The notes beneath the pieces were generated by a model. That model searched no databases and was not told the DNA's origin. It saw only the letters and a list, made by a program, of their open reading frames with translations. Below, piece after piece: positions 13,290-23,304 of a stretch of 39,545 nt of DNA. The stretch's first letter is position 1, and every line of letters begins with the position of its first letter. The position numbers were made by a program, and so were the translations under genes. Source of the DNA: an uncultured Bacilli bacterium (GTDB lineage Bacteria > Bacillota_I > Bacilli_A > RF39 > UBA660); NCBI GenBank assembly GCA_947628245.1, contig CANQZH010000001.1, forward strand, positions 1 through 39,545, given 5' to 3'.

Positions 13290-13311
13290 TAAAAAAAGCA
13301 ATTTCTTGCTT
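13290..13311 (-). terminator. Rho-independent terminator closing the Tad-like locus
   Basis: On the minus strand, AAGCAA-gaaa-TTGCTT is followed by T7. The stem overlaps the stop codon of the tadZ-like gene. Confidence 0.55.
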
Positions 13312-14348
13312 TATTTAAAAATATTAAATAATTTTCCACCTTTATCATTACTACTAATATTACTACTAAAACCTAATTTTTGTAACAATGCTTCTAATTC
13401 ATAATGATTATCTAATTTATCATCTAAATAAGGAATATTAAAATATACTTTACTATTAGATTCACTTTCAAAATCACCAACATCATTATTATCTAATACA
13501 CTACGATTTAAAATAATTTTTTCTCCCTTAAGTTTATCAAATATTTGAGGATCTTTTCTAATTAATTTATTTAATTTAATTAAACCTGGTTCAATTAAAT
13601 ATAAAACATCTGTACAATAATCAGTAGCCCCTTCTTCATTTAAATCAATTAAAATAACATCACGATTATAATTAGTAGAAATAAATTTTTGTAATTCAAA
13701 ATGATTAGTATTAGTTAAAGATCGATCATTTAAATAAACAAAATCATTTTTATCAACTTCTACGGCAACAACATTATAATTTTTTTCTAATTGTTTTTTC
13801 AATAAATAAGTTAAAGTAGTACTTCCCGCGTGTTCTGTAATATTTTTTAATCCGATAATTCTAATTGACCTTTTAGATTCAGTAATAACTTCTTCTCTTT
13901 TATTATTTTTATCTTTTTTAGAAGAATGATGTGAATCACTTTCCACATTAGAATCATCAATCATTAAATTTAATTGATGATACTGAGCTACATCTTTATA
14001 ACTATTAGGATTATCAATTAAAAACTTAATAGCATCTATATTTCGGGTGAAATTATAAATTCCCATCGAAACTAAAGAAGATAAATATCTTGGACTATTA
14101 ACAACTTCACTATCATCTAATAAAATAACTACTTTACTCATATCCATATTAACTGATAACTCTTGAATAACTGCTATATTTTGATAGTCTTTTATTGATG
14201 TTATATCTAATACCATTTTATTATAAAAGAAATTACTAAATTGTGAAATTAATTCTTCAGGAGTAAATTCACCATTAATACTCTTAATAATATCAATATC
14301 TAAATTATTCAATAACGCTTCATATTTATTAACAACTTTTACATTCAT
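13311..14348 (-). CDS. TadZ/CpaE-like protein: receiver-like N-domain plus a ParA/MinD-like domain with a degenerate Walker A
   Basis: The N-terminal ~125 aa has a receiver-like alternation (VLDITS...VVILLDD...GIYNF). The C-terminal IRIIGLKNITEHAGSTTLTYLL...VVAVEVD...VILIDLN resembles the deviant P-loop, switch and Walker B layout of TadZ/CpaE, but lacks the GK[TS] lysine. It is the last gene of the Tad cluster. Confidence 0.45.
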   Translation of the reverse strand: MNVKVVNKYEALLNNLDIDIIKSINGEFTPEELISQFSNFFYNKMVLDITSIKDYQNIAVIQELSVNMDMSKVVILLDDSEVVNSPRYLSSLVSMGIYNFTRNIDAIKFLIDNPNSYKDVAQYHQLNLMIDDSNVESDSHHSSKKDKNNKREEVITESKRSIRIIGLKNITEHAGSTTLTYLLKKQLEKNYNVVAVEVDKNDFVYLNDRSLTNTNHFELQKFISTNYNRDVILIDLNEEGATDYCTDVLYLIEPGLIKLNKLIRKDPQIFDKLKGEKIILNRSVLDNNDVGDFESESNSKVYFNIPYLDDKLDNHYELEALLQKLGFSSNISSNDKGGKLFNIFK

Positions 14349-14359
14349 AATCTACACTC

Positions 14360-14848
14360 CTATCCTATTTTATAATTTAAATTATCAGCTGGATAATTAA
14401 CATCAATACTTTCACCAAAAACATTAAAAGTTAACAAATCACCTATAACTGGTAAATTAAACTTGAAAAAAAATCTTACTTGATATTTAGAACGTTTAGG
14501 CAAATTTGTTGTCTTTGTACTTATTTTACTTACACAATAATAATACTTTACCTTACTATTACTTACTAACTCTAAAGATGTTGAAGATAAATTTCTTGAA
14601 CCATAATCTCCTTCATTACAATAATGCATAGTTGTATAATTATTATATAATAAATAATTGTTTATTAATTTAATAGCCCCTTTATCACCATCTCTTAAAC
14701 CTTCATATTTTTCAATAAAAGATAATGCCTCATTCTTAATTTTAAATACTTTATTATAATTTAATGATAAAGATAAAAATGAAACAAAGATTAACATAAA
14801 TGCTACTACTAAACCAACTAACCATATACTACCCGTTGACTGTCTCAT
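14360..14848 (-). CDS. TadE/TadF-like pseudopilin (162 aa)
   Basis: The N-terminus is MRQSTG-SIWLVGLVVAFMLIFVSFLSL, a short charged leader ending in Gly followed by a long hydrophobic helix. It lies directly downstream of the pilin genes. Confidence 0.55.
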   Translation of the reverse strand: MRQSTGSIWLVGLVVAFMLIFVSFLSLSLNYNKVFKIKNEALSFIEKYEGLRDGDKGAIKLINNYLLYNNYTTMHYCNEGDYGSRNLSSTSLELVSNSKVKYYYCVSKISTKTTNLPKRSKYQVRFFFKFNLPVIGDLLTFNVFGESIDVNYPADNLNYKIG

Positions 14849-14856
14849 AAATTCAC

Positions 14857-15330
14857 CTACCCTACATATATCGTCTTAGTATCGCCTTGAACTTTAAAAT
14901 TAAATAAATCATGAAAAATTGGCAAATCTAATTGATAAAATACTTCTACACGATAGTAAGATACTGATGGCAATTCATTAGCATAAGTAGAAGATGTATT
15001 ACTAATAACTTTAGCAATACAAAATGCCGCATTATTACTACTTGCTATTTTTCCTTCCCTTGTATAACCTTGATAACCAGCATCACAAGTTCCAGTAGTA
15101 CGATATGCACTATCAGTTAAATATTGAGCAATTTCGCATAAAGCACCATCATCTCCACTACATTCACCACTAATATCTAAACCATTATGAGTTTGTATAG
15201 TTTGAATTATTCGGTCTTTAACATTAAATGCTTTGGACTGATTAATAGTTAGACACATAAAACCAGAAAAAAGCAAGACAAAAACGATTACTATTTGAAA
15301 TAGCCAAGTTCCACCAATCGCTTCTCTCAT
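14857..15330 (-). CDS. TadE/TadF-like pseudopilin (157 aa)
   Basis: The N-terminus is MREAIG-GTWLFQIVIVFVLLFSGFMCL. It has the same architecture as its neighbour and 4 Cys in the predicted extracellular part. Confidence 0.55.
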   Translation of the reverse strand: MREAIGGTWLFQIVIVFVLLFSGFMCLTINQSKAFNVKDRIIQTIQTHNGLDISGECSGDDGALCEIAQYLTDSAYRTTGTCDAGYQGYTREGKIASSNNAAFCIAKVISNTSSTYANELPSVSYYRVEVFYQLDLPIFHDLFNFKVQGDTKTIYVG

Positions 15331-15348: not shown

Positions 15349-15582
15349 TTAACCTTTCCAAACGCATTTAAAATCTTCGCCTTTTTTTCCCTTTAAATGA
15401 CAATTTACCTCAACACAATTATTATCAGGACATTTTTCACAAATTGCTTGGGAACACTTAGTATTGGAATTCATATTATTTCTAATTACTGGCCATAAAG
15501 CAAAATAGAAAAAAGCAGCTAGACCAGCTATTGCCATTATAATAACAACTGACATATTCAATTCTCCAGATGCTTCTTTCAC
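15349..15582 (-). CDS. Flp-like small pilin, paralog 3 (77 aa, 6 Cys)
   Basis: MKEASG-ELNMSVVIIMAIAGLAAFFYFALWPVI is followed by the Cys-rich tail KCSQAICEKCPDNNCVEVNCHLKGKKGEDFKCVWKG. Confidence 0.6.
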   Translation of the reverse strand: MKEASGELNMSVVIIMAIAGLAAFFYFALWPVIRNNMNSNTKCSQAICEKCPDNNCVEVNCHLKGKKGEDFKCVWKG

Positions 15583-15595
15583 TTTTTTACCTCCT

Positions 15596-15832
15596 TTATT
15601 TTGGACTTACATCGGTTCCACTACAATCAAGATAAGTAGGATTTCCATCTTTATCTAAAGCTTCACATACATTACGTTTATCATTACAAGAATAAGCAGA
15701 TGCACATAATGTTTGACGATTTAAATTATTTTTTATTGCAGGCCATATAAACGCATAGAAAAATGCTGCTATTGCGGCTATTGCTACTACAGTTATAACT
15801 GTAATATTCAATTCACCCGTCGCTTCTTTCAT
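15596..15832 (-). CDS. Flp-like small pilin, paralog 2 (78 aa, 4 Cys)
   Basis: The first 43 aa are identical to paralog 1 (MKEATGELNITVITVVAIAAIAAFFYAFIWPAIKNNLNRQTLC). The C-terminal ~35 aa are divergent. Confidence 0.6.
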   Translation of the reverse strand: MKEATGELNITVITVVAIAAIAAFFYAFIWPAIKNNLNRQTLCASAYSCNDKRNVCEALDKDGNPTYLDCSGTDVSPK

Positions 15833-15848
15833 TTACTTATCACCTCTA

Positions 15849-16079
15849 TCATTTAACTGATGTATCTTGTGGTGTACAATTTACAGTAACTACATTTCCA
15901 TCTTTATCTAAGGCACTACAAGAAGTACCCTCACAATGATAAGCAGATGAGCATAATGTTTGACGATTTAAATTATTTTTTATTGCAGGCCATATAAATG
16001 CATAGAAAAATGCTGCTATTGCTGCTATTGCTACTACAGTAATAACTGTTATATTTAATTCACCTGTCGCTTCTTTCAT
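15849..16079 (-). CDS. Flp-like small pilin, paralog 1 (76 aa, 4 Cys)
   Basis: It has a short leader ending in Gly, a ~25-aa hydrophobic helix and a small Cys-containing tail. A strong RBS (GGAGGGA) and a consensus-like promoter lie upstream. Confidence 0.6.
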   Translation of the reverse strand: MKEATGELNITVITVVAIAAIAAFFYAFIWPAIKNNLNRQTLCSSAYHCEGTSCSALDKDGNVVTVNCTPQDTSVK

Positions 16080-16106: not shown

Positions 16107-16135
16107 ATTATAACTTTTTTAATTAAAATTATCAA
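16107..16135 (-). promoter_or_regulatory. SigA-type promoter for the pilin/pseudopilin/tadZ-like operon
   Basis: On the minus strand, TTGATA (16135..16130), a 17-nt spacer and TATAAT (16112..16107). The RBS and the ATG at 16079 follow. Confidence 0.5.
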
Positions 16136-16139
16136 CCAT

Positions 16140-18605
16140 TTAAACTTTAAATATACATTTTTTTAAACTTTTTAAGTAAAATATAAATCCTATTATTCCT
16201 ATTAAAGAAAATATAACTCCAATTGTAAATCCTTTTATATGATAAACCATTTCTATTTTATGTTCTCCTTTAATTAGTTTTAACCCAATAATACTATCCT
16301 TAAACTTAAAATAATCAACCTTTTCACCATCTATTTTTATTTCAATTCCCTCATCATAAGGAATAGTTAAAACTAATAAATTTTTATCATCAGTTGCCGA
16401 TACATTACCACTAAATCCTCTAAAATTTATTTTAACTTCATTAATAATATTTGAATTTAAATCGTCAATTAGTAATTTAAATTTTTCTTCATTAATATAT
16501 TCTAATTTATTATCAAATTTAGGAGTTGAATTTTGACCCTCATTTAAAAATATTTCCAACTTAACTATATCACCTTTTTTTAAAGAATAAATATCTGAAA
16601 TTTCTTCATCATTTAAATATAATTTATATGTATCTTCATATTTAATTATTTTTTGAACATTTTTTTGATCATCTGTCGAGTATATTAAATAATTATTTAA
16701 CAAATTAATTTTACCAATAATATTTTCATTAATGTTATACATAAAAATTACTTTACCCTCCGTATTGCTATCATTTAATTCATAACAATTTTCTTTTTCA
16801 ATAACATTTTCTAATGTTATCACAGGCTCTAAACTTTTTAATTCTTTATTATTTATTAAATTATCTATAACATCAACATTTTGTTCAGATATTAAAAAGC
16901 CTAAACTATTTATAATATATTTATTAGTTAAATATTTATTTGTTGATTCATTTATAACATACTTAACTCCTAATAAAGCATCCATTAAAAAATGACTATT
17001 ATAATTTATTGAATGATTATATTCATTATTATCCCGAAAGTTATATAAAAAATTATTTAAATTATTATTGTATATTGATGAATATCTACCTACTCCATTA
17101 AAATTATATAATAATCCACCATTTTTATTTAAAGTAGTATGAATTCTTAGAAAATTATTATTATCTTGTAAATTATTTATTAAATTACTTATATCAATAA
17201 TTTTTTGACGATCTTCATTAACATAAGTATACCGATAATAAATATTTTGATAATTTACATTTATATTCATAATTATATTAATAGTTAATTCCAATATAAT
17301 TATAAAATAAGTAATAAAACGTAAATTAGAGTTATTATAATTAAAAAAATAGTAGATTATCATAAATAAATTTATAATAAAAAGCCAAATATAAATTTTA
17401 TCATTATCAAAATTATAATAAAAAGATTTATATAAAAATGAACATACCAGAAAAATAACTATTATTATCAATACTTTTTTAGAAATAACTTGATAATGTT
17501 TATCTTTTTTTATAAAAAAATTATAAGCTATTAAAACCCAAAAAGCATTAAAACAAAAAATAAATCTACTAGGTATACCAACTGGCTGTTGAAATAAATG
17601 CCATATATAATATAAAGGATATAAGAATAATGATAAAATATAAATAATAATAACAAATAATGTTGATTTTTTATATTGACGATTCATTTTAGAATAAAAA
17701 ATACTTATCATAACTAAAACAAACACGAACATCGATATATATAAATTTGCTGAATTTAATAAATTAACATTTTCTTTAACAGTTGTGCTCCCCATAAAAA
17801 AATTATATATTGATGGTAAAAATACATCATTAACTTGCCAAAAATTCACATCACTTAGATAAGAATTCCTTCCTTGAAACAAACTAAATATCGTAGGAAT
17901 TATGATATATGATGCTGTTAAACCACAAAATAAACTTGTTACAAAAAATTTAACTATTCTTTGTTTTTTTATTTTCTTTTCATAATTTGAATTATATAGC
18001 AAATAGAAAAAATAAATAACTGCAAAAATACAACACATATAAGCTGTATAATAATGAATTATAATCATATATGTTAAACATCCATAATACATTAAATTTT
18101 TATCATCATTTACTATTTTATCTATTCCAATCATTATTAATGGTAGTAAATACATAGCATCTAAAAACTGATAATTCCAGTAATAAAATGTTGCAAAACC
18201 TGACAAAGCATATATAGTTGAAAAAATTAATGTACTTTTACTTAATTTTTTCCTATAATTAAGTAAAATATTCATCGTTAACCCCATTAAACCAAATTTA
18301 ATTAAAGTTAAAATGACGAAAAATAAATCAAAATTTTCTTTTCTAAATAAAAAATATAATAAATTTAAAGGATTATTTAAATAAGTTGTAAAAATTGGAT
18401 AAAAACTTTCCCCTAATCCTATGTTAAAAGTAAAGATTTTAAAATTTCTTAATCCTTCAAAAAAAGCAGGATATTGCATTAAAGAATCAGAAAATCTTAA
18501 AGAAATATTTCCAAATGGATATATATTTAAACTAAATAAAGCAAAACTAAAAATTAAGATTGGTAATAAAAAAGCTATAGCATAATGAATAAAATTTTTC
18601 CTCAA
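16140..18605 (-). CDS. YfhO-family polytopic membrane glycosyltransferase (GT-C-like), 821 aa
   Basis: A large N-terminal block of more than 10 TM helices is followed by a ~300-aa extracytoplasmic region and a final TM helix, the layout of the B. subtilis YfhO / Listeria GtlB family. The TTG start overlaps the GT2 stop (TTGA). Confidence 0.65.
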   Translation of the reverse strand: MRKNFIHYAIAFLLPILIFSFALFSLNIYPFGNISLRFSDSLMQYPAFFEGLRNFKIFTFNIGLGESFYPIFTTYLNNPLNLLYFLFRKENFDLFFVILTLIKFGLMGLTMNILLNYRKKLSKSTLIFSTIYALSGFATFYYWNYQFLDAMYLLPLIMIGIDKIVNDDKNLMYYGCLTYMIIIHYYTAYMCCIFAVIYFFYLLYNSNYEKKIKKQRIVKFFVTSLFCGLTASYIIIPTIFSLFQGRNSYLSDVNFWQVNDVFLPSIYNFFMGSTTVKENVNLLNSANLYISMFVFVLVMISIFYSKMNRQYKKSTLFVIIIYILSLFLYPLYYIWHLFQQPVGIPSRFIFCFNAFWVLIAYNFFIKKDKHYQVISKKVLIIIVIFLVCSFLYKSFYYNFDNDKIYIWLFIINLFMIIYYFFNYNNSNLRFITYFIIILELTINIIMNINVNYQNIYYRYTYVNEDRQKIIDISNLINNLQDNNNFLRIHTTLNKNGGLLYNFNGVGRYSSIYNNNLNNFLYNFRDNNEYNHSINYNSHFLMDALLGVKYVINESTNKYLTNKYIINSLGFLISEQNVDVIDNLINNKELKSLEPVITLENVIEKENCYELNDSNTEGKVIFMYNINENIIGKINLLNNYLIYSTDDQKNVQKIIKYEDTYKLYLNDEEISDIYSLKKGDIVKLEIFLNEGQNSTPKFDNKLEYINEEKFKLLIDDLNSNIINEVKINFRGFSGNVSATDDKNLLVLTIPYDEGIEIKIDGEKVDYFKFKDSIIGLKLIKGEHKIEMVYHIKGFTIGVIFSLIGIIGFIFYLKSLKKCIFKV

Positions 18606-19555
18606 GTAACATCATCTTCTTTCTTGTCACTTTCTTTAATTATATATAATGGTCTTTTTTTAGTTTCTAAATAAATTTTAGAAATATATGCCGAACAAAT
18701 TCCTAAACAAAATAATTGAATACCTGAAACAAAGAAAATTATACATACTAATGATGGCCACCCACTAACTGGATCACCAAAAACTAATGTTTTAAAAATA
18801 ATAATTAAAATCATAATAAATGAAATAAGACAAAAAATAATTCCTAAAAAAGTTGAAATCATTAAAGGAACTGTCGAAAAGCCAATAATAGCATCAAAAG
18901 CATATAACATTAATTGCCAAAAACTCCATTTAGTTTTTCCGGCAACTCTTTTAACATTGTCATACGTAATCCATTTTGTATTAAATCCTAAATAACTAAA
19001 TAATCCTTTCGAATAACGATTATATTCTGGTATTGTTAATATTGCATCAGCAACTTCTCTTGTCATCAAGCGATAATCTCTTTCTCCAGATACCATTCTA
19101 ACTTTACTTATTTTAGCAATAAATTTATAAAAAGCTTCTGCTAAAAAACTCCTAATTATTGGTTCACCTTTACGATTTTTTCTTTTAGCTATAACTATAT
19201 CATATTTTTCTTTTACAATGCTTTTATACATTTCAATTAAAAGTTTTGGGGGATCTTGTAAATCTACATCCATAAAAGCTACATAATCACCATTTGCATA
19301 TCTTAATCCCGCTAATAAAGCAGCTTCTTTTCCAAAATTTTTAGAAAAAGACAAATAATGAATCCAGCTATTATCACTTTTCAATTTTTTTATGAAATTT
19401 AAAGTGTTATCCCGACTACCATCATCAACAAAAATTATTTCTAAATTTATCTTTTTTTCCTTAAATTTTTCATTAATTTTCATTATTTCTTTATAAAATA
19501 ATAATATACTATCTTCTTCATTAAAACATGGTACAATCACTGATATTTTTTGCAT
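18602..19555 (-). CDS. GT2-family polyprenyl-phosphate glycosyltransferase (CsbB/GtrB/DPM1-like)
   Basis: ISVIVPCFNEE, VDDGSRDNT and DVDLQDPP (DxD) are followed by two C-terminal TM helices, which is the GtrB/CsbB architecture. It is coupled to the yfhO-like gene. Confidence 0.8.
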   Translation of the reverse strand: MQKISVIVPCFNEEDSILLFYKEIMKINEKFKEKKINLEIIFVDDGSRDNTLNFIKKLKSDNSWIHYLSFSKNFGKEAALLAGLRYANGDYVAFMDVDLQDPPKLLIEMYKSIVKEKYDIVIAKRKNRKGEPIIRSFLAEAFYKFIAKISKVRMVSGERDYRLMTREVADAILTIPEYNRYSKGLFSYLGFNTKWITYDNVKRVAGKTKWSFWQLMLYAFDAIIGFSTVPLMISTFLGIIFCLISFIMILIIIFKTLVFGDPVSGWPSLVCIIFFVSGIQLFCLGICSAYISKIYLETKKRPLYIIKESDKKEDDVT

Positions 19556-19609: not shown

Positions 19610-19637
19610 GAAAAAAAGATAACCAAATTGATTATCT
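19610..19637 (-). terminator. Weak hairpin plus T-run after tadC (possible attenuating terminator)
   Basis: On the minus strand, AGATAA-tcaatttgg-TTATCT is followed by T7. The stem is only 6 bp and AT-rich, and it overlaps the tadC stop. Confidence 0.3.
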
Positions 19638-20424
19638 ACATACTCATCATCATTAATAAAGCAAATATTAACAAAATCATTACTCCAACTCCAGTTGCAA
19701 CTAACATTTGCATAGTTTTCTTTTCCATTTTCTCTAAACGTTCTTTATACTTTAATTCACGAGCCTTTTGTTGTAAATTAGAAATAGTTCTAGAAAATGC
19801 CAATAATTGTTCTTGTTTATGTTCTTGCCTTCCTAATGATAAACGATATAATAAACGCATCATTCTCATTGAATCTCTTACTGGATAAGTTTTAGCAAAA
19901 GTCATATAAGGATTTATTGAACTATCACCAGCATTAACTTCGTTTATTAATTGTTGCAAACCTTCTTTAAATATTCCTGGAGCATCATTAATAGATTTTC
20001 CTAGAGCAACTGGAACTGTATAATGTTGAATTAAGATTTCTAAACTTTTTAAATAATGAGGTAGCATCGCATCAATATCATGTAAATGCCTTTTATAATA
20101 ATTTTTCATATTACTATAGTCTAATTTAAAAACTAAATAACCAGCTAATAAAGAAAATAATACAGTTATATAAGTTAAATTAGAAATAAAGAAACATAAC
20201 ATAACAACAATAACAATTAATCCATTTTTAATTCTTTTGTTAAATAAGAAATCAGCATTAACGGTATCACCGTACCTTGCTTTTACATAAAAATCCCAAT
20301 CATTTTCTTTAAGTCTTTGAAAATATACTTCATTATCCGATACAAATCGATTAATACTTATTTTTCCTGTAAAATCAAGAGCAAAGAAAATTAGAATTGC
20401 TAAGCCAACAATCTCAAAATACAT
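19636..20424 (-). CDS. tadC: Tad platform protein, TadC-like (T2SS-F domain)
   Basis: It is a polytopic membrane protein with one N-terminal TM helix, a TM pair, a cytoplasmic helical domain and a C-terminal TM helix. There is a TAATG overlap with the tadB-like gene downstream of tadA. Confidence 0.6.
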   Translation of the reverse strand: MYFEIVGLAILIFFALDFTGKISINRFVSDNEVYFQRLKENDWDFYVKARYGDTVNADFLFNKRIKNGLIVIVVMLCFFISNLTYITVLFSLLAGYLVFKLDYSNMKNYYKRHLHDIDAMLPHYLKSLEILIQHYTVPVALGKSINDAPGIFKEGLQQLINEVNAGDSSINPYMTFAKTYPVRDSMRMMRLLYRLSLGRQEHKQEQLLAFSRTISNLQQKARELKYKERLEKMEKKTMQMLVATGVGVMILLIFALLMMMSM

Positions 20425-21320
20425 TACTCCACCCCCACATCTTCATAATAGAACCGTTCTCCTTTATATAGAAAGAAACAGTTAATCCATATAATACAAT
20501 GTAATATTAATTGAACATACCACATATCTAATAATTTAATGTAAGAGTCAGTACCAAGCAAAAATTGCATAGCCATAACTAATAAGAATAATGCTAGACC
20601 AAAAGTAACAAATCTTTTATGAAAATCAGCTCGATCAATTTGATCTCGATATACACCTTCAACTAAGGCATCAATATCCATTGATAAATTTTCCAAAGCT
20701 TCACCAGAATCCTTAGCACCTTCTTTAGTAATTTGTAAAAATAACTGATTCATATTTTTAACCATATAATATGGATATTTTTGATTAAAAAATTCAATAG
20801 ATTCATCAATAGTACCATTTTGATATGACATATCAATCATAGTTCTAACATCAGTTAATACGGGATCTTCTAATATACCAGAATCTCTAACACCTTCCAA
20901 AGATTTAACAAAACTTTGAGTAGTTGTAAATTCCATTATAACATTTGTAGTATATATTTGAATTTGTTCAAAAATAAATTCAGAATAAGCTTTTTGACAT
21001 CTTAAATAAGCAAGAAAAGGAATAAACAAAACTGCAACTCCAGCATAGATTAAAGCAATAATAATATTATAAAAATATAAATAAGAAATACCACCCGCAA
21101 CAACAGCAAAAACAACAACTTGAGTTAAATATTGCCTTGGAGTATATTCTTGTCCCAATTCTTTAACCTTTTCTCTTACTTGTTTAAAGCTATAAGGAGC
21201 ATATTTATCATAAGCATTAGCAACGCTTTTAGCAAAGAATTTATAAACATTTTCACCATTATTCATATAATATGAAACTGCAAAAACTGCAATGGCTATA
21301 ATAATTATTAATTCAATCAT
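20424..21320 (-). CDS. tadB: Tad platform protein, TadB-like (T2SS-F domain)
   Basis: It has the same topology class as tadC and lies immediately downstream of the TadA ATPase gene. Confidence 0.6.
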   Translation of the reverse strand: MIELIIIIAIAVFAVSYYMNNGENVYKFFAKSVANAYDKYAPYSFKQVREKVKELGQEYTPRQYLTQVVVFAVVAGGISYLYFYNIIIALIYAGVAVLFIPFLAYLRCQKAYSEFIFEQIQIYTTNVIMEFTTTQSFVKSLEGVRDSGILEDPVLTDVRTMIDMSYQNGTIDESIEFFNQKYPYYMVKNMNQLFLQITKEGAKDSGEALENLSMDIDALVEGVYRDQIDRADFHKRFVTFGLALFLLVMAMQFLLGTDSYIKLLDMWYVQLILHCIIWINCFFLYKGERFYYEDVGVE

Positions 21321-21334
21321 ATTCTCCCTTCTTT

Positions 21335-22432
21335 CTATAAAGTTTCTATAGTTGCAACATTAGTTGGCTTATTTTTTTCTTCAACAAATATATCATCTGG
21401 TAAAGTTACTCCCGATATTGATAAATACTCTCTTAAATGATTAGTTGGATTATTCATTGTAATTTCACCAGTTAAAGTCTTTTGAAAAATTGTATTTACT
21501 TGAGGTTTATTTTCTTCATCAACATAAAATTCACAAATTTCCATTATTTCTCTTTGATATCTACCTAATTCCTTACTCATATATCCTTTTACATAAATAC
21601 CAATTTGAACATATCGATGAATTGTTGATAAAAACTGTTCAACATCAACATTACTTTCAATTAAGGCAAACATACGCATTGGTATTAAACTTGCTTTATC
21701 AGAGTGAATTGTTGATAAAATATGGTGTCCTGAAGAAATACTATTACGAACAGCCATAACCGCTTCTGCACTACGAACCTCAGATAATAATATCCATATT
21801 GGATTTTGTCTCATACAAGTTACTAACACATCAGTATAACTAGCAATATTATTAGTTTTCATAGCAATAATATCACGATGAGGAAAAATTCGATCTAAAT
21901 GTAATTCCAAAGTATCCTCAATTGTAATAATTTTTTCATTTTCCTTAGTATGAGAAGCTAAATACTTTACCAATTCAGTTTTACCTGAACCAGTCTCTCC
22001 ACTTACTATTATATTAGCATGACCTTCAACACATTTTAATAAAAAATCAAGAAGACTAGCTGAAATATACTGTTCATTTAATAATTTTTCTCTATTCAAT
22101 CTAATTTTAGAAGGTGTTTTTCTTATTTGACAAGCAATACCATTAGTAGCAATAGAATCGTGAATAAAATTTAAACGCAATTCAGCACTTTCAGCATCTA
22201 AAAAAGGATGAGCCATATTGAAAGTTTTACCCATAACATTTGCACATTGGAAAGCTAATTTTTCTAATAAAGCATTATTAATCTCCGGTCTTTCAACTTG
22301 ATATGAACCTTTATCTAAAGATTTTAGCCATACTTGTCCATTATTACAAATAGATATATCGGTAATATTTTCTTCTCTCAAAAACTCATCTATTGGACCA
22401 AAATCCAGTTGTGAAAATATCGCGTCGTTCAC
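21335..22432 (-). CDS. tadA: TadA/CpaF-family secretion ATPase (T2SS-E / VirB11-like)
   Basis: It has Walker A SGETGSGKTELVKYL, an Asp box (IITIEDTLEL), Walker B WILLSEVRSAEA and a His box GHHILSTIHS. Confidence 0.85.
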   Translation of the reverse strand: MNDAIFSQLDFGPIDEFLREENITDISICNNGQVWLKSLDKGSYQVERPEINNALLEKLAFQCANVMGKTFNMAHPFLDAESAELRLNFIHDSIATNGIACQIRKTPSKIRLNREKLLNEQYISASLLDFLLKCVEGHANIIVSGETGSGKTELVKYLASHTKENEKIITIEDTLELHLDRIFPHRDIIAMKTNNIASYTDVLVTCMRQNPIWILLSEVRSAEAVMAVRNSISSGHHILSTIHSDKASLIPMRMFALIESNVDVEQFLSTIHRYVQIGIYVKGYMSKELGRYQREIMEICEFYVDEENKPQVNTIFQKTLTGEITMNNPTNHLREYLSISGVTLPDDIFVEEKNKPTNVATIETL

Positions 22433-22461: not shown

Positions 22462-23304
22462 TTAATCATTATTATTATCATTGTTATTATTATTGTTGCT
22501 ACTTGTACTAGTTGAAATATTTTCATCTGGTATAACTTCAGTTTTAGATAAAATAAATTCTTTAACATAATCACTAGCAACTTCAGTTTCTCCAGGATTT
22601 GCTGTATAGTTCTTATTTCTTGGAACTGGTACTATTTCAACATTATACCCAGATAAATATTGAGCTTTTTTTAGTAATGAATACATATCATCAGGTACTG
22701 CAAATAATAAATCTGATGGTGTTCTTGCTTCACCAGATGTTTCAAATACTGATTTACCCTGTGAATCACGAACATCTAATACTTTAATACTACTAATTAA
22801 ATTAGTATACATTAATCGATTATAATCATTAGTTCCTTTAAACCATAAATCAATATAGTTTCCAGGGAATATTGAGTTACCATATGTAGTATGTAAATCT
22901 ACTGGTAAAGAAAATAATGTATAACCATTAGGAATATCAGCTGTAACACTATCAGGTTGTGTTTCAGGTGAAACAACTGTTTCCGTATAGAAGAAACTAT
23001 TTTGAGGAATAGTCGTTCCATACATAACTTCCTTACCAATTAATTGATTAGCATTTCTAATCATATTACTACTTTTACTCAATACTGTGCTAGAAACTTC
23101 CATAAAGCCAATATCATCATCAGTTATAACATGTCTAGAAGCTAAAGTCGTTTTAGCATATGGAATAGTTGTTGGATTAATAGCATTATTAACCCTCCAA
23201 GTATATCCTAAATACAAAACCAAAATACCAATAACAACACATATAATTGTTACCGTATTCTTATTACTTAAAAATTTCTTTAAATTAGCTCCAATATTTC
23301 CCAT
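22462..23304 (-). CDS. CpaB/RcpC-like pilus assembly protein (N-terminal TM, SAF-like domain) with a poly-Asn C-terminal tail
   Basis: The TM helix is VTIICVVIGILVLYLGY. AKTTLASRHVITDDDIGFMEVSS...LIGKEVMYGTTIPQNSFF matches the SAF/CpaB pattern. The tail is STSTSSNNNNNNDNNND. Confidence 0.55.
   Translation of the reverse strand: MGNIGANLKKFLSNKNTVTIICVVIGILVLYLGYTWRVNNAINPTTIPYAKTTLASRHVITDDDIGFMEVSSTVLSKSSNMIRNANQLIGKEVMYGTTIPQNSFFYTETVVSPETQPDSVTADIPNGYTLFSLPVDLHTTYGNSIFPGNYIDLWFKGTNDYNRLMYTNLISSIKVLDVRDSQGKSVFETSGEARTPSDLLFAVPDDMYSLLKKAQYLSGYNVEIVPVPRNKNYTANPGETEVASDYVKEFILSKTEVIPDENISTSTSSNNNNNNDNNND

Follow-up and report, generated by a model that had tools for sequence, protein, structure and literature searches.

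Three tandem genes for probable subunits of a divergent Tad-like pilus in uncultured small-genome gut Bacilli

What do three small tandem genes build if two of their products are identical over the first 43 residues and then diverge in a short cysteine-containing tail? This question is raised by positions 15,349 to 16,079 of contig CANQZH010000001.1 (39,545 nucleotides (nt) analysed, hereafter the window), which belongs to an uncultured Bacilli bacterium whose genome is referred to as G000. All coordinates given without a genome or locus prefix are window coordinates. G000 is a metagenome-assembled genome (MAG) of 1.09 Mb with 26% G+C and a completeness of about 66%. Its nearest relatives are rabbit-gut MAGs named 'uncultured Bacilli', and more distant ones are labelled Tenericutes, Coprobacillus sp. 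CAG:605 and Candidatus Caccenecus. An earlier interpretation made from the letters of the window (the sequence-only reading) had described the genes as Flp-like pilins with a constant helix and a diversified knob. The three-gene finding is real and beyond chance, and the evidence presented here makes it likely that the genes encode structural subunits (two of a class A and one of a class B) of a divergent, unannotated Tad-like (type IV filament) pilus in gut Bacilli that are uncultured and have small genomes. For these subunits we infer leader cleavage, disulfides, filament assembly and co-polymerisation. The genes and their products, with lengths in amino acids (aa), are:

15849-16079, minus strand: p1, class A (main) pilin, 76 aa, 4 Cys (C43, C49, C54, C68), head ending in ...VNCTPQDTSVK
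15596-15832, minus strand: p2, second class A pilin, 78 aa, 4 Cys, head ending in ...DCSGTDVSPK
15349-15582, minus strand: p3, class B pilin, 77 aa, GTG start, 6 Cys, conserved C-terminus ...FKCVWKG

Conserved helix, variable head and two subunit classes

The three open reading frames (ORFs) were intact and separated by gaps of 16 and 13 nt, and each was preceded by a strong Shine-Dalgarno sequence (GGAGG, GAGGTGA and AGGAGG, as read from the DNA). Over residues 1-43, p1 and p2 were identical at the protein level. The sequence-only reading had put the underlying silent differences at about seven; counting gave exactly 7 out of 129 nt, all of them synonymous (7/7) and located in codons 5, 8, 10, 13, 19, 27 and 43. 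The proteins diverged from residue 44 on, and the sequences that had been quoted for this divergence were correct. p3 shared 51% identity with p1. The spacing of the cysteines was C-5-C-4-C-13-C in p1, C-5-C-6-C-13-C in p2 and C-4-C-2-C-4-C-4-C-11-C in p3.

Non-synonymous (dN) and synonymous (dS) divergence between p1 and p2 was determined by Nei-Gojobori counting, comparing the first 43 codons with the 33 alignable codons of the head. The first 43 codons gave dN = 0 and dS = 0.30 (28.7 synonymous and 100.3 non-synonymous sites), while the head gave dN = 0.62 and dS = 0.38. If seven changes fell at random, the probability of hitting synonymous sites only would be about (28.7/129)^7 (roughly 3e-5), and a Fisher test of synonymous versus non-synonymous changes in the N-terminal half and the head yielded p = 3.8e-5. 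Among orthologue pairs from five species, omega ranged from 0.00 to 0.10 over the first 43 codons (at dS 0.30-1.02) and from 0.13 to 0.75 in the head. These near-zero orthologue values firmly show purifying selection on the helix, just as had been proposed. The accompanying proposal of a diversifying head held in part: the head evolves much faster and, judged by these codon counts, appears relaxed or diversifying, but positive selection was not demonstrated. Since omega exceeded 1 in a single paralogue pair only, with about 22 synonymous sites, we do not claim it.

The N-terminal 129 nt carried a further signal. Within this segment, p1 of G000 differed from p2 of the same genome at 7 positions and from p1 orthologues at 12-16, and among the four genomes compared 0 sites separated p1-type from p2-type genes. 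Some states were common to both paralogues of one genome (Pro31 as CCT in G000 only; Val12 as GTT in G000 and G160). The heads gave the opposite signal to the 5' halves and grouped by type across genomes. On these small numbers, it is probable that, in addition to purifying selection, gene conversion that followed speciation made the 5' halves of the tandem copies alike.

A p1 search of a 5.8-billion-sequence collection returned 1151 protein matches, none of them named and none with a Pfam domain, and a profile built from 150 members led to 724 clusters at 50% identity (289 of these at E <= 1e-10). In a sample of 149 genomes from the bacterial family, 120 had the pilin gene, and for the genus the count was 39 of 47 genomes. 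Throughout the family the N-terminus, MKEATGELNMTVITVVAIAA.AAFFYAF.WP, was near-invariant and the C-terminal part highly variable. Some genera carried short, Cys-free members of 49-57 aa with the N-terminus unchanged, which suggests that the head is an elaboration on an Flp-sized scaffold.

The arrangement of the genes was then established for 80 species-level loci encoding 131 distinct pilins, which also served for the cysteine counts given below. Class A combines the ultraconserved N-terminus with a variable head. In class B the helix is less conserved and the head more conserved than in class A, with C43, A46, C48, C61, G65, C73, K76 and G77 invariant in 37 homologues and the exact end [VP]-W-K-G. 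The 80 loci read AB (39), A (28), AA (6), AAB (4), AAA (1) or B only (2), never BA, and in the genus all mapped loci with two or three pilin genes had a class B gene in last place. The two class A genes of the window, p1 and p2, arose by duplication. Both class A head types co-occurred in G204, G152 and G160, with head identities of 64-83% within a type and 39-55% between types. Specifically, the p1 head was 67-79% identical to its orthologues in these three genomes, and the p2 head was 54-60% identical to its orthologues in the same three and G202, and 48% identical to p1. Regarding p3, it had been described as more distant and as having six Cys; both are true, but it is not merely a distant paralogue, being the positional orthologue of a distinct and conserved second class. 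Its conservation and its place after class A indicate a second subunit instead of a drifting or decaying copy.

The bare fact of duplication is the one point in favour of a single functional gene accompanied by two decaying duplicates. All three genes are intact, however, orthologues of each occur in at least four species with omega below 1 in every orthologue pair, and class B is present in most loci with the more conserved head, so that decay appears extremely improbable. The sequence-only reading had itself named one expressed gene among decaying copies as evidence that would count against it; the observed pattern was the reverse, with intact genes that share one promoter (see below) and are kept in several species.

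A shared promoter and co-expression of the three genes

The element upstream of p1 was:

16107-16135, minus strand: pilin promoter, TTGATA-17 nt-TATAAT, 11/12 consensus matches, about 27 nt before the p1 start codon

Besides the window, TTGATA-N17-TATAAT was located 25-34 nt before the first pilin gene in 21/21 loci of the same genus, and a version with 9-11/12 matches was present in seven loci of other genera. The promoter was kept whichever gene precedes it, either that of the 262-aa membrane protein (TM262) or that of a YfhO-family enzyme, both described below. Together with its A-rich spacer and GTTATAAT, it was conserved almost letter for letter in the genus (L030-L060), which is unusual for an intergenic element. 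Between the three genes we found no promoter-like gap, terminator or inverted-repeat switch, and no terminator-like site followed them either. The repeat search of the window yielded only the repeats due to paralogy, including a p1/p2 direct repeat of 167 nt with 89% identity, and two trivial inverted repeats. A single conserved promoter without internal signals makes it most likely, as far as the DNA can tell, that p1, p2 and p3 are co-transcribed at a high level. Both class A versions would then probably be made together and could co-polymerise. Therefore, of the mixed or switchable filament surface suggested earlier, the mixed form is possible, and the switchable form found no support in inverted repeats, an internal promoter or a terminator.

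The 167-nt direct repeat and the signs of gene conversion in the 5' half could also be expected of antigenic or phase variation, in which one class A copy is expressed and the other serves mainly as a recombination donor (cf. pilE/pilS). However, in 5/5 species the reading frame of both copies was open and had a start codon and a strong ribosome-binding site. Moreover, conversion seems to homogenise the conserved half; the heads remain orthologous by type and do not appear to be shuffled. The inverted repeats and internal promoters of a switch are also missing. We thus consider such variation very unlikely.

Cysteine framework, leader and assembly machine

The first Cys was residue 43 in 157/157 tabulated sequences. 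The 131 distinct pilins contained 4 (71 sequences), 6 (58) or 8 (2) cysteines and never an odd number; the few odd counts among cluster representatives corresponded to frameshifted or truncated entries, or to one Cys in the membrane helix. C43, C54 and C68 were invariant and C49 nearly so in class A (62 sequences), and C43, C48, C61 and C73 were invariant in class B (37 sequences). The spacing of this framework was kept and the loops varied. In the commonest 6-Cys form of class A, C-5-CxC-4-CxC-13-C, the extra pair was symmetric about the turn, as expected of a cross-strand ladder. Cysteines that failed to be conserved in orthologues had been named beforehand as a reason to abandon the idea of a stapled knob; they proved to be conserved.

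AlphaFold predictions, run with family alignments, gave p1 a helix at residues 10-44 and strands at 47-50, 53-57 and 63-67 (pLDDT 78.8), and p3 a helix at residues 5-45 and three strands (pLDDT 73.4). In the p1 model, C49 was opposite C54 across the first hairpin, and C43, at the helix end, was near C68, past the last strand. This geometry points to the pairings C49-C54 and C43-C68. The faster evolution of the head, its kept cysteines and the predicted three-stranded sheet agree with the small, variable, disulfide-stapled knob of the sequence-only reading, with the disulfides themselves inferred only, from the model. Metal binding or another cross-link would be an alternative use of the conserved cysteines in an anaerobic lineage for which no known thiol oxidase family was found in five genomes (two >90% complete). 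Nevertheless, counts of 4, 6 and 8, with 6 very common, suit pairing better than four-ligand sites, the extra cysteines are symmetric pairs across the predicted hairpin, and class A presents no CxxC knuckles, which makes this use unlikely.

The genes around the pilins were equally constant. In 30/30 mapped loci of relatives the order was CpaB, ATPase, two membrane proteins, pilin(s), pseudopilin(s) and a 345-aa gene, indicating that the pilin genes belong to a conserved filament-type operon. In the window, these other members are:

22462-23304, minus strand: CpaB/RcpC-like protein, 280 aa (PF16976, E = 2e-6; TIGR03177, E = 2e-8)
21335-22432, minus strand: assembly ATPase of the CpaF/VirB11/FlaI clade, 365 aa (PF00437, E = 4e-25)
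19636-21320, minus strand: two polytopic membrane proteins, 298 and 262 aa, the presumed platform, directly upstream of the pilins in all relatives
14857-15330, minus strand: pseudopilin-like protein, 157 aa, leader MREAIG and then a hydrophobic helix, following the pilins in every locus examined; no Pfam match
14360-14848, minus strand: pseudopilin-like protein, 162 aa, leader MRQSTG and then a hydrophobic helix; no Pfam match
13311-14348, minus strand: operon-terminal gene, 345 aa, always after the pseudopilins; no significant family match, 'TadZ-like' being the label given to it earlier

In the PDB search the ATPase was equally close to VirB11-like, CpaF and FlaI proteins (all about 2e-16), and it scored 98 bits with the TadA model, below the cut-off. 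The CpaB-like protein reached 27.9 bits with PF16976 (cut-off 28.8) and 33.6 bits with TIGR03177 (cut-off 71). CpaB was duplicated in several members of the genus, and in some relatives DUF5411 formed part of much longer proteins (L030 7158-8288, 376 aa; L036 4435-6168, 577 aa). G000 also carries a second, canonical Tad-like set (G000:C19:1492-5258) consisting of a TadZ-like protein (KGGVGKT), a 436-aa CpaF (PF00437, E = 2e-43) and two TadB/C-like proteins; the pilin of this set was not found in the incomplete G000 assembly.

The N-terminus MKEATG/ELNITV consists of a six-residue leader followed by ELNITVITVVAIAAIAAFFYAFIW, that is, the short polar leader ending in Gly and the stretch of about 20 hydrophobic residues that are characteristic of type IV pilins. 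The leader M-[KR]-[EQ]-[AS]-x(1,2)-G was common to the pilins, the two pseudopilin-like proteins and two DUF5411 proteins of the locus, and a classical pilin elsewhere in G000 has a leader of equal length (MKNNKG/FSVVES). An A24 peptidase of 215 aa with a GGGD motif is encoded at G000:C83:2710-3357, and the A24 family was present in 18/18 sampled genomes of the genus. This only A24 peptidase adjoins a 641-aa protein with a pilin-like N-terminus (…NKTYLLITLGVLGAIMLTLGLTYAYW; G000:C83:415-3357), and a paralogous N-terminus is found at the contig end (5224-5442). Cleavage of the pilin leader after Gly6 by the A24 peptidase is plausible from these features; it is also conceivable that the subunit stays uncleaved, or 'leaderless'.

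Are these proteins Flp pilins, as they had been called? This claim failed. PF04964 gave no Pfam match at E <= 0.01 on p1-p3, and a six-frame PF04964 search of G000 found nothing, while it did recover the flp genes of the Caulobacter control and of related genomes. The G/XXXXEY processing motif (Glu at +5, Tyr at +6) was absent, with no EY in the pilins; canonical flp genes in other genomes of the class read …ESGQ/GMVEYGLI…. An hhalign comparison of the pilin family with 11 Flp sequences of related genomes reached a probability of 25% over 13 columns of hydrophobic helix, so that homology was not detectable. Similarly, the N_methyl motif PF07963 had no match in the pilins. With regard to structure, Tad pilins are described as lacking a globular domain (PMC11067988, PMC10710030). 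The predicted sheets of p1 and p3 depart from such a single helix without globular domain, to which the short Cys-free members would conform; the long N-terminal helix and C-terminal beta-sheet of type IV pilins are both present in the AlphaFold models of p1 and p3. The system probably works like a Tad/type IV filament, yet it falls outside the Flp family as defined by sequence. Other families of the class carry tandem arrays of 4-5 canonical flp genes (L061 (G413:C17), L063 (G456:C27)), indicating that multi-copy pilin genes are common in these Bacilli. Within the same bacterial family, canonical Flp-like genes (…RGQ/ALVEY…) at L065 (G003:C16) 1417-1647 and L066 (G006:C2) 1426-1635 have a C-terminal tail with exactly two Cys; thus, Cys-looped tails are not confined to the MKEATG family.

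Several results weigh against a role as pilus subunits. The presumed cleavage site has Glu at +1 and not at the usual +5, and the A24 peptidase lies outside the pilin locus; the true substrates of this enzyme could be the canonical Tad-like set and the classical pilin. The 298-aa and 262-aa proteins were not identified as a TadB/TadC (T2SSF) platform by any match in Pfam, NCBIfam or the PDB, and neither pseudopilin-like protein matched any family. Pfam and NCBIfam searches with p1-p3 and both pseudopilins gave nothing useful, only weak matches to F-ATPase subunit b, and the best PDB match that Foldseek returned for the p1 model had E = 0.13, which is not significant. Finally, none of the DsbA, DsbB, VKOR, BdbD, Thioredoxin_4 and Redoxin families was found in five genomes of the genus (G000, G152, G204, G160 and G096, two of them >90% complete), and thus no Dsb-type oxidase that would form the disulfides. 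As for subunit b, the PDB profile search also returned ATP synthase subunit b only (E = 0.02), in a match that covered the membrane helix and a VWP motif common to both, and comparison of the pilin helix (residues 8-38 of p1/p2) with F-ATPase subunit b aligned INLTLIG…FVWPPLINAI against LNITVIT…FIWPAIKNN (NCBIfam E = 0.06-0.12). This match was set aside as a compositional resemblance, and the likeness of the helix is probably convergent.

The missing pilin family matches, the very divergent machine with platform proteins lacking a family assignment, and the look of the heads, which resemble Cys-framework peptides with hypervariable loops, would also agree with proteins that are not filament subunits at all. 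They could be small Cys-knot peptides, secreted or crossing the membrane once (signal, toxin-like or receptor peptides), that are exported or displayed without polymerising, like a type II secretion pseudopilus. This is quite unlikely, as the helix is conserved far beyond the need of a simple anchor (omega about 0) and the genes are always flanked by machine genes on one side and, on the other, by pseudopilin-like genes with the same type of leader. In addition, a dedicated strong promoter suits an abundant structural protein, and the Cys-free members of 49-57 aa resemble plain Flp-sized pilins.

If the proteins are pilus subunits, as we favour, the locus could work as follows. The duplicated class A genes, p1 and p2, would provide the main subunit, and p3 the conserved second subunit, probably a minor or priming pilin acting with the two downstream pseudopilins. 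The strong promoter before p1 would drive p1-p2-p3, and both class A forms could co-polymerise. The A24 prepilin peptidase, whose gene lies outside the locus, would probably cut off the leader, M-K-E-A-T/S-G, behind Gly6, and the helix of about 37 residues would act first as a membrane anchor and later pack in the filament core. The helix would have to fit the peptidase, the platform and about six neighbouring helices, which would account for its near-invariance across the family, and in tandem copies its coding half is probably further homogenised by gene conversion. The head of 30-35 residues would form a three-stranded sheet in which C43, at the helix end, pairs with the last Cys and the middle cysteines pair across the hairpin. 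Being the exposed surface, it could vary freely between its fixed cysteines.

Candidate glycosylation and comparison with known systems

Two additional genes of the window lie between the platform genes and the pilin promoter:

18602-19555, minus strand: GT2 (CsbB/GtrB-like) glycosyltransferase, 317 aa (PF00535, E = 2e-32), overlapping the YfhO start
16140-18605, minus strand: YfhO-family GT-C membrane glycosyltransferase, 821 aa (PF09586, E = 1e-114)

This GT2/YfhO pair occupied the same position in G000 and the genomes closest to it, G160, G204, G152 and L040 (= GCA_947623995.1). YfhO was found in this slot in G151 and G164, the pair was placed after the 345-aa gene in G153, and most members of the genus had no insertion in the slot. 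In other genera, the same slot held a divergent YfhO with 26-38% identity to that of the window and confirmed by PF09586, either alone (L125/L132, G085, G050, G113, G141 and G125) or followed by GT2 (L102). L102 additionally contained an extra 75-aa pilin-like ORF (2616-2843) between GT2 and the class A pilin; its N-terminus (MKFYKINNELNMTV…) is aberrant, its tail is rich in N/T/S, and it contains just two Cys. A sample of 150 genomes contained about 100 YfhO genes in 73 genomes, mostly elsewhere; in six genomes from five genera YfhO was directly upstream of the pilin, for which we estimated a chance expectation near 0.1 (about 1000 genes per genome). An initial impression that YfhO was confined to the pilus locus within the genus was withdrawn, as the Pfam-based search revealed divergent YfhO genes elsewhere (e.g. 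G096:C16). No shared sequence motif was found in the pilin heads of YfhO-adjacent loci.

The class A tails contain Ser/Thr past the last Cys (TPQDTSVK, SGTDVSPK), and in relatives they are long and rich in Ser/Thr/Gly. To our knowledge, no pilin is a substrate of a YfhO-family enzyme. In streptococci, membrane-associated proteins are O-glycosylated in Ser/Thr-rich C-terminal regions outside the cytoplasm by a YfhO-family enzyme paired with a GT2 of the GtrB-like type (bioRxiv 10.1101/2024.05.05.592596), and the GT-C enzyme TfpW, encoded beside pilA, glycosylates a Pseudomonas pilin (bioRxiv 10.1101/2020.04.19.049825). The Ser/Thr-containing tails and these two precedents make pilin O-glycosylation a reasonable hypothesis. 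We put forward tentatively, and by analogy, that the GT2/YfhO pair of this lineage, and the divergent YfhO in the same slot of at least five other genera, might O-glycosylate the Ser/Thr-containing C-terminal tails of the class A pilins and give rise to a glycosylated Tad-like pilus. Lipoteichoic acid, which is glycosylated by CsbB/YfhO in B. subtilis (PMC5836110), is a conceivable acceptor as well, and an ORF with a sulfatase domain and of LtaS size was found in G000 (C70:2343-3185, 666 aa), G152 and G160. The recurrent adjacency to pilin genes counts for the pilin as acceptor. Should it be true, this would be the first pilin substrate of the YfhO family, and would add a second, swappable layer of surface variation beyond the hypervariable Cys-braced head.

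A frozen helix with a variable Cys-braced head repeats on a small scale what is normal for pilins. The novelty lies in its occurrence in a Tad-like context, with an atypical leader, a missing oxidase and a recurrent YfhO neighbour. The textbook view of a headless Tad pilin is challenged by subunits that range from bare helices of 50 residues to Cys-braced heads of 30 residues, a natural series for asking how a pilin head is gained and packs. The related uncultured Bacilli orders RFN20 and ML615J-28 have been reported to lack sortases (PMC10868615); together with the presence of the pilin family in most genomes of a large group of such gut bacteria, this suggests that the pilus is likely a main adhesion organelle. 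Phages or host antibodies probably target the variable heads, which could be used as strain markers. The locus also makes two questions concrete, namely how an anaerobe oxidises its secreted Cys-rich proteins without a known Dsb enzyme, and whether YfhO enzymes glycosylate pilins.

The nearest known counterparts of the locus are filament or secretion machineries and glycosylation systems. Like Flp/type IVc systems (Caulobacter PilA, Aggregatibacter Flp1, PF04964), it has very small prepilins, often in tandem and with Cys-free forms of 49-57 aa, whose hydrophobic N-terminal helix would be the polymerisation module, and it encodes them beside a pair of pseudopilin-like genes, an ATPase of the clade that includes CpaF and a protein that resembles CpaB/RcpC. 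Unlike them, it has a 6-residue leader, Glu at +1 and a predicted beta-sheet head with 4-8 Cys. In common with type IVa/IVb and ComGC pilins are the conserved N-terminal helix, the variable C-terminal domain with a predicted, probably disulfide-stapled beta-sheet and a presumably exposed surface, and the probable minor pilins encoded beside the major one. In contrast to those, the head has only about 30 residues versus 100-150, N_methyl, Phe1 and Glu5 are absent, and the ATPase is of the CpaF/VirB11/FlaI type and not of the PilB type. The 'secretion-related' DUF5411 operon predicted in Clostridia (Miller et al. 2022, PMC9523054) likewise belongs to gut Firmicutes and combines a CpaF-like ATPase with a PilC/GspF-like membrane protein, a large surface protein and a DUF5411 protein; the small pilins are not described there, and the present lineage belongs to the Bacilli. 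Regarding the glycosyltransferases, the window combines a GT2 with a YfhO-family GT-C enzyme as do the streptococcal pairs GtrB/PgtC2 and PgfS/PgfM1, and it places the GT-C gene near the pilin as in the PilA-TfpW system of P. aeruginosa.

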